From: Vicinamibacterales bacterium
Lineage (GTDB): Bacteria; Acidobacteriota; Vicinamibacteria; Vicinamibacterales; UBA8438
Direction of reading: 5' to 3'
Length of the DNA stretch: 64,000 nt
Assembly: GCA_965214865.1 (NCBI GenBank)
Contig: CBDCCN010000004.1
Location: forward strand, 3,338,942 to 3,402,941
Position numbers and translations under genes: made by a program. Below the pieces are notes generated by a model. The model did not search any database and was not told the DNA's origin. It saw only the letters and a list, made by a program, of their open reading frames with translations. Below are positions 24,902 to 31,823 of the stretch, piece by piece; the stretch's first letter is position 1, and the number at the start of each line of letters is the position of its first letter.

Positions 24902-26014
24902 CTATGCGGCGACGACCCGCTCCACGGTCCAGAACAGCCCCACGCCGGCAATGGCGACCGATAGCGGGACCACGACCCGCGGCCGATACCACGGGCGCTT
25001 GCGAACCCCGAGCACCGCGGCGAACGCGGCGGCGATGACCGCGAGCTGCCCGGCCTCGACGCCGACGTTGAAGGTGAGGAGGGCCGTGACGAACTCCGAT
25101 CGGGGCAGCCCGAGTCCGGTCAGGACGCCGGCGAAGCCCATGCCGTGCAGGAGGCCGAAGGCGAAGACGAGCACGACGCGCGACGGCTGCAGCTCGCTCG
25201 TGACGAGGTTCTCCACGGCGACGTAGGCGATCGACAGGGCGATGAGCGGCTCGACCACGGACGGCGGCAGCGCGAAGACGCCGTAGATCGTCAGCGCCAG
25301 GGTCAGCGTGTGCGCCGCTGTGAACGCGGTCACCTGCAGCAGCAGCGGCTTCAGCCGGGTGCTGAGGAGAAACAGGCCGAGGACGAACAGGATGTGGTCG
25401 AGGCCCCGCGGCAGGATGTGGGTGAAGCCGAGGCCGAGATACTGGGTCGCGACCTGCCAGCGGGTGAGCGGCTGCAGCGCGCCGATCTCGAACGCCTCGC
25501 TCACCTGCGCGGCGAGCAGCCAGCGGGTGACCGGCGCGCCGACGGCGGGCGCCACCGTGAGGGGATACTCGTCGACGACCAGGTCATAGCCGAACTGGAA
25601 CGTCCGCGCCCCGGGCGGCGCCGTCCCGGACAGCCGCATCAGGCCGGGCTCGGCGAGCCCCATCGGCGCCGAGCGGTCGCGTTCGAGCGGCGGGAGATAC
25701 GTCACCGTCCGCGGCGCCGCCGGGTTGCCGTCGAACAGCAGCGTGATACCGGTGGCGAACTGTGGAGCGAGCTCGGCGAGACGGGCGTCGCGTGCATCCA
25801 CCGGCGGCAGCTCCGCTGCGCCCGGGTGGAACTGCATCCACAGCCAGTCGGCGTCGTTCAGGACGTCGATCCGGTATTCGCCGTCGGCCGGGAAGCTGAT
25901 CAGGACGTGGGTGTTCTCTATCTCGTGAGCCGCGGCGGGCGGCGCCGCGAGGACGAGCGCGAGCAGGACGGCCGCCCGGCAGCGGCTGCGAACGCGGCTG
26001 GTGCGGCGCGCCAT
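24902..26014 (-). CDS. HupE/UreJ-family membrane protein with periplasmic N-terminal domain
   Basis: AAAHE after signal; GFTHILPRGLDHILF, TAFTAAHTLTL, FGLLHGMGFA, FNVGVEAGQL; start 26014 or 26026. Confidence 0.9.
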   Translation of the reverse strand: MARRTSRVRSRCRAAVLLALVLAAPPAAAHEIENTHVLISFPADGEYRIDVLNDADWLWMQFHPGAAELPPVDARDARLAELAPQFATGITLLFDGNPAAPRTVTYLPPLERDRSAPMGLAEPGLMRLSGTAPPGARTFQFGYDLVVDEYPLTVAPAVGAPVTRWLLAAQVSEAFEIGALQPLTRWQVATQYLGLGFTHILPRGLDHILFVLGLFLLSTRLKPLLLQVTAFTAAHTLTLALTIYGVFALPPSVVEPLIALSIAYVAVENLVTSELQPSRVVLVFAFGLLHGMGFAGVLTGLGLPRSEFVTALLTFNVGVEAGQLAVIAAAFAAVLGVRKRPWYRPRVVVPLSVAIAGVGLFWTVERVVAA

Positions 26015-26032
26015 TGGACGACTCATTCTAGC

Positions 26033-26070
26033 CCGTCGGGTCTGACGATCACCGCGCCTCGGCATATCCG
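26033..26070. repeat. 38-bp direct repeat, copy 1 (copy 2 at 27290-27327)
   Basis: CCGTCGGGTCTGACGATCACCGCGCCTCGGCATATCCG vs CCGTCGGGTCTGACAATCACTTCACCTCAGCATATCCG, 33/38 identical. Confidence 0.85.
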
Positions 26071-26583: not shown

Positions 26584-27309
26584 CTACGGCGCAGACCCCT
26601 GCGGGCCGCGGGCGGTCCCGCGGAGCACGACGCGTGGCGCAGCGTCATGCGCGGCCTGGAGATCGCGGTCCGAGGCGTACGACCGCGCCGTCAGCCGGCG
26701 GGCCGGCGCCGTCAGCTCGACGATCCGGCCCGCGAACGGATCCGGCCGCACGTGCAGCGTCGTCCCGTCGCGCGTGACGGCGTAGCCCTCGCGGTGGAAC
26801 GTTCCCGACCACCCGCAGCAGAAGATCAGCGAGAGCAGATCGCCGAGAAAGACGAAGCGGTAGTCCGCCAGCAATACGTCGAGATCGTCGTCGTAGGCGC
26901 CGCCCCGGAGAATCCGGTCCCGCTCCGCCGCCAGGGCGGTGAAGAAGCGCTTCCAGCCGGGTGTCGAATGCCGCTCCAGCACGGTGAGCGCATGCTGCGC
27001 CACCAGCGCCGCGGCGGCCGGATCGACCGGCTCGAGCCGGCGCATCCCGCGCGGCCAGATGCCTTGTTTCGTCGCGTCCGGGGCGGTCATGAAGTGATGC
27101 GGGCGCCCGGTGGCCGCGTCGACCGCGGGCCGGTCGTCCACCGCGAGCCAGCCGTTGTCGTGCTCGCGGGTCGCAAGGAGCACCGTCTCGCGCGTACGGC
27201 GTCCCGGAAGGCCGTCGCTGCGCCACGCCGCCATGATGCGTCCGGAGAGGGCCGCGTGATCCGGCTGGGTGACGAGCAGCAGATCGTCGCCGTCGGGTCT
27301 GACAATCAC
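26584..27309 (-). CDS. DUF3891 family protein
   Basis: MIVRPDGDDLLLVTQPDHAALSG..AAW, EHDNGW, DLLSL..C. Confidence 0.85.
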   Translation of the reverse strand: MIVRPDGDDLLLVTQPDHAALSGRIMAAWRSDGLPGRRTRETVLLATREHDNGWLAVDDRPAVDAATGRPHHFMTAPDATKQGIWPRGMRRLEPVDPAAAALVAQHALTVLERHSTPGWKRFFTALAAERDRILRGGAYDDDLDVLLADYRFVFLGDLLSLIFCCGWSGTFHREGYAVTRDGTTLHVRPDPFAGRIVELTAPARRLTARSYASDRDLQAAHDAAPRVVLRGTARGPQGSAP

Positions 27310-27327
27310 TTCACCTCAGCATATCCG
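27290..27327. repeat. 38-bp direct repeat, copy 2 (covers -10 box and start of the DUF3891 gene)
   Basis: See copy 1; minus strand TATGCT-8 nt-GTG27309. Confidence 0.85.
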
Positions 27328-27418
27328 CGTATCATGGATGCATGGGCCGGCCCGGACGGCAGCGGCCGGCGCCTGCCCGTTCCCTGTGGCGCATGACACG
27401 ACGAATCGGAGGTTCCAG

Positions 27419-28498
27419 ATGAAGCTCGCTCGCATCCTGGCTCTGACGTTGGCGCTCGCGTTCGCGGCCGCCACCGCCGCCGCGCAGGCCCCGCCCCTGC
27501 CGGACGTCGACCGGTTCGGCCCGCGGGTGGGCGAGACCGCACCGTCCTTCTCGCTTGTCGACCAGCACGGCGCGGCGCACGACCTGCAGTCGCTGATGGG
27601 ACCGGACGGCCTGATGCTCGTCTTCAGCCGCTCGGCCGACTGGTGACCGTACTGCAAGACGCAGCTCGTGGAGCTGCAGAGCCGGTACACGGACCTCCGG
27701 GATCGCGGCCTCGGCCTCGCCGTCATCACCTACGACCCGACCACCACCCTCGCCGGCTTCGCCGCCGCGCGCGGGATCGATTTTCCGCTCCTTTCCGACG
27801 AAGGCTCCGCGACCATCCGCGAGTACGGCCTCCTGAACGAGGAGATGGACCCGGCGCGGGCGCCGGAGGAGCGGCGCGCGCTGATGCAACGGCTGTACGG
27901 GATCCCGTACCCGGGAACCTTCATGCTCGATCCGGCCGGCCGCGTGACCGCCCGCTTCTTCGAGGCGGCCTATCAGGAGCGCTCCACGGTCGCCAGTATC
28001 GCCGTCCGGCTCGGGGACGCGGCGGCGGGCGCGGATCGGGCCGGGGTGCGTGTCGAGACCGATCACCTGGAGGCTCTGGCCTGGGTGACCGACGAGGGGG
28101 TCGCACCCGGCAACCGCCTGTCGCTCGTGGTCGACGTGACGCCGAAGGCCGACATGCACGTCTACGCGCCGGGGGATCATGCCTACCGCGTCATTCGTCT
28201 GCGCACGACCGCGCCCGACTTCCTGCAAAGTCACGAGGTGACCTATCCGCCGTCCGGGCTGTACCACTTCGAGCCGCTCGACGAGACGGTGCAGGTCTAC
28301 GAGGAACCGTTCCGACTGGTGCAGGACGTCACGATCCCGATGCGGCAGGACATCGCCGAGGCGGCGTCCGAGCCGGACGCCACGGTGCGCGTCGAGGCGG
28401 TGCTGGAGTACCAGGCCTGCGACCACGCGGTGTGCTATCTGCCGCAGGCGGTCCCGCTGGTCTGGGATTTGTCTTGGCGCCCGCTGATCCGCGACTGA
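27419..28498 (+). CDS. Selenoprotein: secreted AhpC/TSA-like redoxin (UxxC) fused to a DsbD N-terminal-like domain; in-frame TGA at 27644-27646 read as Sec
   Basis: GGAGG RBS + ATG27419; signal peptide; GP.VGE.APSFSL.DQ.G...FSRSADW-TGA-PYCKTQL continues in frame; C-terminal YQACDHAVCYLP; SECIS-like hairpin directly downstream. Confidence 0.88.
27647..27692 (+). promoter_or_regulatory. Bacterial SECIS-like stem-loop
   Basis: Perfect stem GCAGCTC(27661-67)/GAGCTGC(27671-77) with GTG loop 21 nt after the UGA; lower stem GTACTG/CGGTAC. Confidence 0.75.
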
Positions 28499-29249: not shown

Positions 29250-30278
29250 CTACTCAACGCCTTCCATCAGGTATTCGACAAGCGCGGGCACGATGATGTC
29301 CGGCCGCTCCAGGTGCGGCACATGACCCAGCCCGGGAAAGAGCAGCATGCGACCGTTTCCGTTCGGGATGGTGTCGGCCAACACCTGCATTCGCTCCTGG
29401 AAGACCTCCGCCGGACCGAGCAGCAGATCCTCCGCGCCCCCGAAGGCGAGCGTCGGCACGTGGACATGCGGCCAGTCGTAGACGACCGGGTCCTGGTAGA
29501 GCATCTGGCTGATGATCGCCTGCACCATGGCGAGGCGCGGAAAGTCGGAGCTGAGGGTCCACGACGAGCGGATGCGGGTGTAGAGCTCGAACTGGTCGTT
29601 CCAGGCCGACGGGTCGTGCCCGACGTACCGGCTGAGGCTCCGGCGGGTGCTCTGGTAGTCGGTCTGCAGGATCCGCTCGTAGATCCGATCGACCGGCGTC
29701 ATCGGGCGATTGAACCGGTTGTCGGAGAGGCCGATGGGGTTGTAGATGACCAGCCGCTCGACCGAGTCGGGATACTGCGTGGTGAACCGCGTGGCGAGCA
29801 TGCCGCCCATCGAGTGGCCGACCGCCATGACCTTGTCGATCCCCTCGTGCTCGATGATGAGCTGCGTGTTGCGCGCCTGCGTGTTGAAGTTGTAGGGCGC
29901 GATCGGTTTCGACGATTTGCCGTACCCGATTTGGTCCGGGACGATGACGCGAAATCCGGCGTCGGTCAGCCCGTCGATGATGTCACCGAAGTAGAAGCCG
30001 CCGAAGTTGTTGCCGTGCATCAGCAGGACGACGTGGCCGTTGGCCGTGCTGGCCGGCGCGATGTCCATATAGGAGATGCGCACGTCCTGGCTGTAGACAT
30101 TGATGTCGAGATACTTGCTCGGGGCCGGATACGGGCACTCGTCGCAGGTGATGCTGCCTGGCTTGAGGTCCGTCGGCGTCGGCACCGGCGGCAGAATGTC
30201 GCGACCTTGGGCGCCGGCGGCGGCCGCCGCACCGAGAATCACGAGCACCGAGGCGAGTGTTCTGAGAGAAACGGGCAT
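29250..30278 (-). CDS. Secreted alpha/beta hydrolase
   Basis: LLMHGNNF, PDQIGYGKS, GHSMGG nucleophile elbow, GHVPHLE. Confidence 0.92.
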   Translation of the reverse strand: MPVSLRTLASVLVILGAAAAAGAQGRDILPPVPTPTDLKPGSITCDECPYPAPSKYLDINVYSQDVRISYMDIAPASTANGHVVLLMHGNNFGGFYFGDIIDGLTDAGFRVIVPDQIGYGKSSKPIAPYNFNTQARNTQLIIEHEGIDKVMAVGHSMGGMLATRFTTQYPDSVERLVIYNPIGLSDNRFNRPMTPVDRIYERILQTDYQSTRRSLSRYVGHDPSAWNDQFELYTRIRSSWTLSSDFPRLAMVQAIISQMLYQDPVVYDWPHVHVPTLAFGGAEDLLLGPAEVFQERMQVLADTIPNGNGRMLLFPGLGHVPHLERPDIIVPALVEYLMEGVE

Positions 30279-30554
30279 GAGTCCTGCTCCATGGTCCAGA
30301 AAGTGTCGGTAAATGTACCATACGCCGGGGGCTCGATCCAGAACCGCCCGCACGACGACAGTCCGTATCGGCATTGGCGCGCCCCTCGAACAGGCGCCCG
30401 ACCGTCGCAGCGGGCTGACCAGGCTGACCCACAAGCCGGGCTGCGACGCCGAGGCGCACGAAGCTCTCGTGTACCCGCCCGGGCACCTGCCGGTCCGCCC
30501 ACCGCGATCCGCGCACGAGATCGTCGGCGCGCGCCATGGCGTCGACCATGTGAC

Positions 30555-31823
30555 CTACAGTTCGCGGATCCCGTGGCTGCGGGCGAGGAAGTACAACGCC
30601 ACCAGCACCAGCAAGCTCCCGTTCAGGGCGATGACGGTCTGGGTCGAGGCGAACGTCGTCAGGTAGGCGCTGGCGAGGCTTCCCAGCGGCATCCCGCCCC
30701 GGAAGGCCATCAGGTAGATGCTCATCACCCGGCCGCGGAGCTCGTCCGGCACGTTGAGCTGGACGAGCGACGCGGTCAGCGAGAAGACGATGAGCAGCGC
30801 CGCGCCTGCGAGGAACAGCAGCAGGTAGCTCAGCGGGTTGACCGGCAGGAGCGCGAACACGGCGATCAGGCCTCCGAACACCGCAAGCACCCGCAGGAGC
30901 GTCAGACCCATCCGCTCGAAGCTGCCCATCCAGGCGACGACGAGCGCGCCCGCCACCGCGCCGGTTCCGAGCGCCGTCATCATGTGGCTGAGCGTGGTCG
31001 GATCGCCGGCGAAAACCGGAAGGAACGCGCGGAGCGGCAGGCCGAGCGAGGTGGTCGAGATGGCCAGGATGGTCAGGGCGAGGAGCGCGCCGCCGCTGCC
31101 GACGTAGGTCAGGCCGCCCTTCAGTTCTTCCAGGACCGGCCGGCGTTTGGCGGGATCGGGCGGCGAAACCTGCAGCAGGCTCAGCACCACGATCACGACC
31201 AGGAACGACGCGCCGTTGATCCCGAAGCAGGCGACGAGTCCCAGCGTCGTGAAGACCAGTCCGCCGATGAGCGGCCCGACCGACTGGGCCAGATTGAACT
31301 GGATGGAGTTGAGGGCGACCGCGTTCGGCAGCGTCTTGCGCGGCACGAGCGCCGGAATCAACGACTGGAAGGCGGGACCGCCGAACGCCTGCGCCAGACC
31401 GGTGACGAACGACAGAATCAGGATGAAGGGAAGGCGCACCGTCTCCGTGAAGACGAGCGCGGTCAGGATGAGCGCGCAGGCCATCTGCAGCACCTGCGAG
31501 GCCATCAGCAGGTGCCGGCGGTCGTAGCGGTCGGCGGTGACGCCCCCGATGAGCGTGAACAGAAGCAGCGGCACGTTCCCCACGAACATGTCGAGTCCCA
31601 GGTAGAACGCCGAGCCGGTGAGGTCGTAGACCAGCCACTGCTGGGCGAAGCGCTGCATCCACGTGCCGACGGCCGAGGTGAACGCCGCCGTCCACAGATT
31701 CCGGAAACCCGGGAAGGTGAAAGCCTCGCCGAGGCGCAGCAGCGCACGCAGGACACGCCCCCGAGGGGGGGCGTCGGCCTGGATCGGCTCCGCGGTGTCA
31801 GGGTCGGCTACCGGCTCGGCCAC
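30555..31823 (-). CDS. MFS transporter (MFS_3/EntS-like)
   Basis: FRNLW...GTWMQ, GGVTADRYDRR, NAVALNSIQFN, DELRGRVMS; about 12 TM helices. Confidence 0.92.
   Translation of the reverse strand: MAEPVADPDTAEPIQADAPPRGRVLRALLRLGEAFTFPGFRNLWTAAFTSAVGTWMQRFAQQWLVYDLTGSAFYLGLDMFVGNVPLLLFTLIGGVTADRYDRRHLLMASQVLQMACALILTALVFTETVRLPFILILSFVTGLAQAFGGPAFQSLIPALVPRKTLPNAVALNSIQFNLAQSVGPLIGGLVFTTLGLVACFGINGASFLVVIVVLSLLQVSPPDPAKRRPVLEELKGGLTYVGSGGALLALTILAISTTSLGLPLRAFLPVFAGDPTTLSHMMTALGTGAVAGALVVAWMGSFERMGLTLLRVLAVFGGLIAVFALLPVNPLSYLLLFLAGAALLIVFSLTASLVQLNVPDELRGRVMSIYLMAFRGGMPLGSLASAYLTTFASTQTVIALNGSLLVLVALYFLARSHGIREL

Follow-up and report, generated by a model that had tools for sequence, protein, structure and literature searches.

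ResA, TlpA and CcmG are extracytoplasmic proteins that are reduced by DsbD or CcdA, and within DsbD itself electrons pass from a thioredoxin-like gamma domain to an immunoglobulin (Ig)-like alpha domain and from there to thioredoxin-fold clients. Selenoproteins of AhpC/TSA type with a UxxC motif, U being selenocysteine (Sec), are likewise on record: the available text of published selenoprotein lists (PMC13188914, PMC2398784, PMC1794560) names a 'Prx-like thiol:disulfide oxidoreductase' and a 'Prx-like 1' (Prx, peroxiredoxin) and, in addition, a 'Redoxin family protein' (PF08534, UxxC). Here we analyze a gene in a 64,000-nucleotide stretch of DNA (contig CBDCCN010000004.1), the whole of which we call the window, from a Vicinamibacterales bacterium, a soil acidobacterium. 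The frame of this gene is interrupted by one TGA at codon 76, and comparison with its relatives indicates that it is almost certainly a genuine selenoprotein gene in which TGA76 is recoded. Taken as a whole, the gene is very probably best explained as encoding an exported Sec redoxin fused to a DsbD-alpha-like domain, which would serve to reduce it.

The Prx-like UxxC selenoproteins (PF00578; 'Prx-like 1' of the Global Ocean Sampling survey), which the lists give as a predicted bacterial family, resemble this protein in their AhpC/TSA thioredoxin fold, in having Sec as the first residue of UxxC and in possessing Cys homologues. Their available descriptions present them as single-domain proteins, whereas the protein here is predicted to be exported and is fused to a DsbD_N domain; it is by these descriptions that the two are set apart. 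ResA, TlpA and CcmG share with it a CxxC chemistry of the W-C-P-x-C type and a Pro aligned with its Pro165, and ResA is its best sequence match both among solved structures and in NCBIfam. However, the score lies far below the cut-off of the ResA family, the fold is nearer to BcpB and AhpE, and here Sec replaces the first Cys and an alpha-like domain is attached. The N-terminal domains of DsbD (nDsbD) and ScsB have the same Ig-like fold, and the Y-Q-x-C...C-Y/F-x-P motif and its Cys spacing are those of the DsbD encoded in the same genome as our gene. In contrast to nDsbD, the domain here has no DsbD transmembrane domain attached, sits C-terminally on a soluble redoxin, and has a similarity to solved nDsbD that falls below HMMER detection. 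Lastly, the rhodanese/DsbD fusion-like selenoprotein (PMC13188914) is a DsbD-type fusion in name but, as the available text describes it, has a rhodanese catalytic domain and a UxxxxU motif. No mention of a redoxin-DsbD_N selenoprotein was found in the literature searched, and the supplementary lists of selenoprotein surveys, which lay outside that search, may hold the family. In the available main text of the 2026 review PMC13188914, PF11412 (DsbD_N) is absent and the single mention of DsbD is the rhodanese/DsbD fusion-like selenoprotein. As far as searched, the redoxin-DsbD_N fusion is a new domain architecture of the known UxxC Prx-like kind of selenoprotein.

A preliminary description of the window, made from the letters and their open reading frames (ORFs), had pointed to two ORF entries that share a frame and are separated by a TGA at the first Cys position of a CxxC motif. 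On the sequence this is correct: both ORFs, 27269..27646 and 27668..28498, occupy one forward frame and are split by the lone TGA at 27644-27646, which is codon 76 when counted from the ATG at 27419 (coordinates of all features are collected in Table 1). On read-through the active-site region becomes S-A-D-W-U-P-Y-C-K, and the 359-residue frame with a CDHAVC motif that had been proposed is indeed present, with C-D-H-A-V-C forming residues 334-339. Full-length homologues with Cys at this position align to the 359-codon frame end to end. The N-terminus looks like a Sec-type (general secretory) signal peptide, from which export and a cleavage site are predicted, and by inspection hydrophobic N-termini of a similar kind are present in most of the gene models with an identified start, which number 78 among the 81 orthologous genes. 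A promoter scan at the gene returned no promoter-like site, and a terminator-like site inside it, at 27758-27775, was taken as chance.

These orthologues come from a scan in which each prokaryotic species was represented by one genome and which yielded 198 stretches encoding relatives; the best 80 of the 198 were kept. Their loci are mostly labelled Vicinamibacterales, Vicinamibacteria or Acidobacteriota, with a few from Terriglobia, Bryobacteraceae and Acidiferrales and three bins otherwise labelled. The preliminary description had suggested that homologues should be aligned for Cys/TGA pairing at codon 76, and the pairing is there: in the window gene and at 44 further loci, 45 of the 81 genes in all, the codon is TGA, and at the other 36 it is TGC or TGT. 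Among the TGA forms the mean pairwise identity is 0.66 over the 46 residues before the TGA and 0.70 over the 60 residues after it, so the part before the TGA is coding. Of the 45 TGA-form genes, 27 also have TGA as their terminal stop, the window gene among them; thus TGA has not been reassigned and still serves as a stop. In a maximum-likelihood tree of 79 rows, from which L042, L087 and L091 were left out (no start found) and to which a paralogue from the window's genome was added, at least four changes between Sec and Cys are needed, and the window gene falls in a fully supported clade of 25 rows, all of them Sec forms. Residue 76 as either U or C, together with C79, C334 and C339, is invariant in all 41 aligned sequences.

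A few members of the family are irregular. L042, a second copy in the genome that also carries L022, retains the TGA and the hairpin described below and has a shortened N-terminus with no obvious signal peptide. L087, a TGA form, is frameshifted on both sides of the TGA, and L094, a Cys form, has a frameshift close to the end of the gene. These irregularities may be either decay or assembly errors. At L063, L064 and L100 the gene lies in bins titled 'uncultured Bifidobacterium sp.' or 'uncultured Phycisphaeraceae bacterium', while it is otherwise found in Acidobacteriota-labelled records; the titles look doubtful, or the contigs were mis-binned.

Downstream of the TGA, the arms GCAGCUC (27661-27667) and GAGCUGC (27671-27677) pair perfectly around a GUG loop (27668-27670). 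The perfect 7-bp hairpin with a G in its loop that had been noticed earlier is therefore real, but the 21 nucleotides (nt) then given as its distance from the TGA lead to the loop and not to the base of the hairpin, the stem beginning 14 nt after the TGA. We compared this region between 41 distinct TGA-form and 36 Cys-form sequences. All seven stem pairs can form in 38 of the 41 TGA forms and six of seven in the remaining 3, whereas among the Cys forms seven pairs are found in 3 sequences, six in 9, five in 12, four in 10 and three in 2. The loop of the TGA forms is GUG in 34 and GUC in 7, and the 20 nt around their hairpin are nearly invariant, synonymous sites included. This is also evident from the third-position entropy. 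Over codons +1 to +4 after the Sec or Cys codon it is 0.54 bit in TGA forms and 0.55 bit in Cys forms, over the hairpin (codons +5 to +11) it is 0.30 bit against 1.16 bit, and over codons +12 to +21 it is 1.38 bit against 1.53 bit. Conservation of synonymous sites over the hairpin is thus a property of the TGA forms only.

The consensus structure that RNAalifold derives from 46 TGA-form sequences is exactly the 7-bp stem, each pair of which is kept in 44 to 46 of the 46, and a single compensatory change in the stem, from G-C to A-U, is present at locus L100. As a side observation, L100 is also the longest branch of the tree. All 45 TGA forms encode the hexapeptide QLVELQ over the hairpin, as against 8 of 35 Cys forms (Fisher p 1.5e-14, uncorrected for relatedness); L091 was omitted from this count for its short upstream flank and likewise lacks QLVELQ. 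The minimum-energy fold of the window sequence has in addition a lower stem, GUACUG/CGGUAC, which was dropped since relatives do not keep it. As judged from the relatives' alignment, the hairpin is conserved only alongside the TGA, as would be expected of the bacterial selenocysteine insertion sequence (SECIS) element that the preliminary description had recommended searching for.

The machinery for Sec is encoded in the window's genome, an assembly of 5.3 Mb in 4 contigs. The preliminary description had advised looking for selA, selB, selC and selD, and all four components are present: a tRNA-Sec (62 bits) whose anticodon is TCA according to ARAGORN, selA (535 bits), selD (293 bits; L018:43-2523, forward strand, contig C4 near 1.53 Mb) and selB (292 bits; L009:675-2670, reverse strand, contig C1). 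SelD is an 827-aa fusion with an N-terminal pyridine-nucleotide-disulphide oxidoreductase domain (Pyr_redox_2 + AIRS + AIRS_C). As assembled, selB lies in two frames, one holding the GTPase, domain 2 and beta-barrel and the other winged helices 2 and 3, whereas it is a single frame in 5 of 5 closest relatives. One base of a homopolymer, at L009:1364, is missing from the contigs of three public read runs (X1, which may be the source sample, X2, and X6, which is from another study), and the contigs of a fourth, X4, end there. The absence of this base from the contigs of three runs indicates that the split is a one-base assembly error and that selB is intact. Similar homopolymer errors may be present in other genes of the assembly.

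Across the family, 40 of 43 TGA-form genomes have a selA match above the cut-off, as against 5 of 33 Cys-form genomes; L042, L085, L088 and L098 were not searched separately, their genomes being already counted. One of the Cys-form genomes with selA, G064 (locus L086), is flagged as unpublished, and when it is set aside the figures become 4 of 32 genomes and 35 Cys-form loci, leaving the conclusions unaffected.

The strongest Pfam match of the protein is to AhpC-TSA (PF00578; 92.2 bits, E 3e-26, cut-off 26), followed by Redoxin (PF08534) at 56.4 bits, which, with the U-P-Y-C motif, bears out the earlier description of a UxxC redoxin. An AlphaFold model of the full-length protein, built on 41 sequences, has a mean predicted local distance difference test score (pLDDT) of 91.4 and a predicted template modelling score (pTM) of 0.84. 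Foldseek places the N-terminal domain with BcpB, AhpE (root-mean-square deviation (rmsd) 2.0 Å, template modelling (TM) score 0.78) and ResA, with E-values of about 1e-9 to 1e-10. Among solved structures, those closest to it in sequence are ResA (E 1e-7) and AhpE. Matches to two narrower families fall below their cut-offs, namely the ResA subfamily NF002854 (45.2 bits, cut-off 170, E 9e-12) and the SelL-related redox protein NF040769 (39 bits, cut-off 120).

When aligned with AhpE, the domain has Cys79 opposite the peroxidatic Cys, Sec76 opposite a conserved Thr and Arg71 opposite a conserved Pro. The invariant Pro165 stands opposite a Pro of ResA, which we take to be the cis-Pro of ResA-type proteins, at the position of the conserved Arg of peroxiredoxins; the AhpE alignment stops short of this Arg, so that its replacement by Pro165 is read from the ResA alignment and the expected position of the Arg. 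Hence three of the four absolutely conserved peroxiredoxin residues (Pro, Thr and Arg) are replaced and the peroxidatic Cys is kept as C79, the four being Pro, Thr, peroxidatic Cys and Arg according to the legend of Fig. 4 in the available text of PMC3322552. These replacements indicate that the domain is not a peroxiredoxin proper but a CxxC-type thioredoxin-fold oxidoreductase on a Prx-like scaffold.

That a DsbD-alpha-like domain with the CDHAVC motif is fused to this redoxin, as had been proposed, is upheld by Pfam, by the fold and by profile comparison, while the electron-relay role given to it at the same time is discussed below as a proposal. Pfam recognizes DsbD_N (PF11412) at 27.5 bits against a cut-off of 25 and finds no DsbD_TM match in the fusion protein. 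The genome encodes one canonical DsbD of 599 aa (L101:1345-3141, forward strand, contig C4 near 1.548 Mb) with DsbD_N, DsbD_TM and Thioredoxin_7 domains, and this gene is the genome's only match to DsbD_TM. When the C-terminal domain of our protein is compared by hhalign with the alpha domain of this DsbD, they match with a probability of 96.7% (E 3.3e-10), and the Y-Q-A-C-x4-C-Y/F-x-P motifs of the two are superposed with equal Cys spacing. Modelled alone, the C-terminal domain reaches a pLDDT of 93.8, and its top five Foldseek matches in the PDB are nDsbD from Neisseria and E. coli (6dps, 3pfu, 1vrs, 1jzd) and the ScsB N-terminal domain (6c29), with E-values of 8e-5 to 3e-4 and target-normalised TM scores of 0.38-0.65. 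A profile of the same domain searched against PDB sequences gave nothing meaningful (best E 0.92). Besides its one DsbD, the genome carries the DsbD_N domain in two fusion proteins. A search for longer database forms, weak as evidence, found no fusion to DsbD_TM and one longer protein, P0122 (659 aa), in which redoxin and DsbD_N are combined with PF02517 (CPBP-type intramembrane protease); P0122 could be either a genuine fusion or the result of merging gene calls.

Putting these elements together, we propose that UGA76 would be decoded as Sec by SelB and tRNA-Sec with the hairpin 14 nt downstream as a guide. Removal of the signal peptide would leave a periplasmic protein of about 335 residues with two predicted redox centers, a selenol/thiol pair U76-x-x-C79 in a Prx/ResA-like fold and a dithiol C334-x4-C339 in an Ig fold. 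The canonical DsbD encoded elsewhere in the genome, with alpha, transmembrane and thioredoxin domains, is a possible electron donor: electrons would pass from the thioredoxin-like gamma domain of this membrane protein to the alpha-like domain and on to the selenenylsulfide of the redoxin domain fused to it, after which Sec76 would make the nucleophilic attack on some oxidised substrate in the periplasm, whether a protein disulfide, a sulfenate or a peroxide. By analogy with DsbD, we give this course of electrons, from DsbD through the alpha-like domain and U76/C79 to substrate, an even chance. The data are compatible with either direction of electron flow.

Published work on Caulobacter informs both the route and the substrate. 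According to the available text of PMC3322552, exported Prx-like proteins of Caulobacter need a DsbD-family protein for their reduction; in Caulobacter/E. coli experiments the peroxiredoxin PprX was reduced by the gamma domain of DsbD and not by its alpha domain; and an exported Prx-like protein without the peroxiredoxin residues had no detectable peroxidase activity. These results suggest that a role as disulfide or sulfenate reductase is at least as likely as one as peroxidase. A true periplasmic peroxidase, with Sec76 peroxidatic, Cys79 resolving and the pair recycled by the alpha-like domain, would be a substrate-specific version of the Sec redoxin proposed here, and we consider it possible but clearly the less probable choice. 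It would suit the fold, which is nearest to peroxiredoxins such as BcpB and AhpE, the rank of AhpC-TSA as top Pfam match, and the existence of periplasmic peroxide reduction fed by the DsbD family that the same source describes. Against it stand the replaced peroxiredoxin residues and the inactivity, as a peroxidase, of the Caulobacter protein that likewise lacks them.

A second alternative reverses the relay. Here the fused redoxin would receive its electrons from the alpha domain of membrane DsbD, as DsbC and CcmG do, the redoxin would reduce its own alpha-like domain, and this domain would pass electrons on to other thioredoxin folds, so that the protein would extend DsbD as a soluble 'gamma-alpha' unit. 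In DsbD itself, thioredoxin folds are the sole exchange partners of the alpha domain, whether as donors or as acceptors, and such complexes (1vrs, 1jzd) are among the fold matches; both redox centers are invariant, and the genome has only one DsbD and two DsbD_N fusion proteins. However, the residue of the CxxC motif that is exposed and makes the attack is the Sec, an arrangement characteristic of terminal catalytic sites, and no candidate for a downstream acceptor is linked to the gene. We regard the reverse relay as unlikely.

An ordinary stop, giving a 75-residue peptide and a separate 276-residue protein from the GTG at 27668, is what gene callers predict, and we find it very improbable. 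Among the best 120 database homologues, 118 are 239-288 aa long, and the four that were aligned all start just after the TGA, at that GTG; only two are full-length, both Cys forms, and entries sourced from NCBI are among the truncated ones. The expectation that standard pipelines would split the gene in two is confirmed by these short homologues. The short product would be without the signal peptide and the whole active-site motif, and nothing comparable to the GGAGG that precedes the ATG at 27419 was found in the sequence before the GTG, which is itself the loop of the conserved hairpin; moreover, Cys-form orthologues are single full-length proteins, and the TGA co-occurs with selA. A pseudogene, produced by a recent nonsense mutation of a Cys codon, needs only the single-base change from TGC to TGA and might seem to be matched by the two-frame selB of the assembly, but it can practically be dismissed, as 45 genes share the TGA, at protein identities reaching down to about 45%, and 43 of them (all but L087 and L042) have frames open on both sides; moreover, the second paralogue of the genome repeats both TGA and hairpin, and the selB split is an assembly error.

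Several observations nevertheless weigh against the exported, DsbD-fed selenoprotein that we favor. The case for Sec incorporation at UGA76 is built from genes throughout. The energy of the hairpin is ordinary for GC-rich DNA, with z = -0.01 for the 67-nt fold and 92 of 200 shuffles as good; its significance comes from the comparison with relatives and not from folding energy. An Rfam scan of 27560-27800, with E-values up to 10, matched no SECIS family and returned two chance-level matches. Covariation in the stem amounts to the one compensatory change, a limit set by the near invariance of the stem, and selA was not found in 3 of the 43 TGA-form genomes (L073, L090 and L100), which are draft metagenome-assembled genomes. 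With regard to function, the failure of alpha on PprX means that transfer from an alpha domain to a Prx fold is not guaranteed. A conserved partner was sought by ORF clustering across the 81 loci with 3-kb flanks, and this recovered only the gene itself and shadow ORFs; nor does a CcdA or DsbD gene adjoin the selenoprotein gene in these flanks. With no conserved partner inside 3 kb, the electron donor named here is conjectural.

If the reading proposed here is true, the gene encodes an exported thioredoxin-fold selenoenzyme with its own electron-relay domain. In the fusion a DsbD-alpha-type domain and one thioredoxin-fold partner are covalently joined, so that for envelope reducing pathways both partner specificity and the direction in which electrons flow could be tested on one small soluble protein. 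The family also offers a natural comparison of Sec with Cys, having 45 Sec and 36 Cys members, at least four switches and a Sec paralogue inside a Cys clade, and is well suited to the question of what Sec brings to an exported thiol oxidoreductase. Since the truncated gene calls lose the signal peptide and the active site, the use of selenium by abundant soil Acidobacteriota is under-counted. More speculatively, Vicinamibacterales and related Acidobacteriota might possess an unrecognised periplasmic reducing pathway that runs through a diffusible two-center protein, fed by DsbD, which would act as a self-recharging, selenium-dependent reductase or peroxidase and in which Sec and Cys have been switched at least four times along with the Sec machinery; we offer this broader idea only tentatively.

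The second Sec-containing paralogue of the genome, L103:769-1911 (contig C4 near 608-609 kb; TGA at L103:1000-1002), has the W-U-P-Y-C motif, the hairpin and the two Pfam domains as in the window gene and belongs to a subfamily marked by a longer insert. It sits on a long branch of the tree, nested with a support of 97 in an otherwise all-Cys clade of 14 rows.

Table 1. Features of the predicted selenoprotein gene and its neighbors in the window
Feature	Position	Strand	Remarks
Complete selenoprotein gene (predicted)	27419..28498	+	359 codons + TGA stop (28496-28498)
Shine-Dalgarno-like GGAGG	27408..27412	+	6 nt upstream of ATG 27419; direct sequence reading
Signal-peptide-like N-terminus	27419..27490	+	residues 1-24: basic start, hydrophobic core, A-Q-A; by inspection
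AhpC/TSA-type thioredoxin-fold (redoxin) domain	27527..27952	+	residues 37-178; Pfam, Foldseek
In-frame TGA, predicted selenocysteine codon 76	27644..27646	+	first position of U-P-Y-C
Cys79, second residue of UxxC pair	27653..27655	+	aligns with AhpE peroxidatic Cys; invariant 41/41
Bacterial SECIS-like hairpin	27661..27677	+	7-bp stem, GUG loop, over codons Q-L-V-E-L-Q
DsbD-alpha-like (DsbD_N) Ig-fold domain	28106..28450	+	residues 230-344; Pfam, hhalign, Foldseek
Cys334-x4-Cys339 pair	28418..28435	+	in Y-Q-A-C-D-H-A-V-C-Y motif; both Cys invariant 41/41
HupE/UreJ_2 membrane protein	24902-26065	-	
DUF3891 protein	26584-27309	-	
Alpha/beta hydrolase	29250-30434	-	N-terminal hydrophobic segment
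MFS_3 transporter	30555-31823	-	

The four neighbors in the window are all encoded on the opposite strand, and the selenoprotein gene thus looks monocistronic. This set of neighbors (HupE/UreJ_2, DUF3891, alpha/beta hydrolase and MFS_3) is common to close relatives only. Subsets of the loci have in common a pyrroloquinoline quinone (PQQ) dehydrogenase, a major facilitator superfamily (MFS) transporter, HupE/UreJ or a sigma factor of the extracytoplasmic function (ECF) type near the gene.

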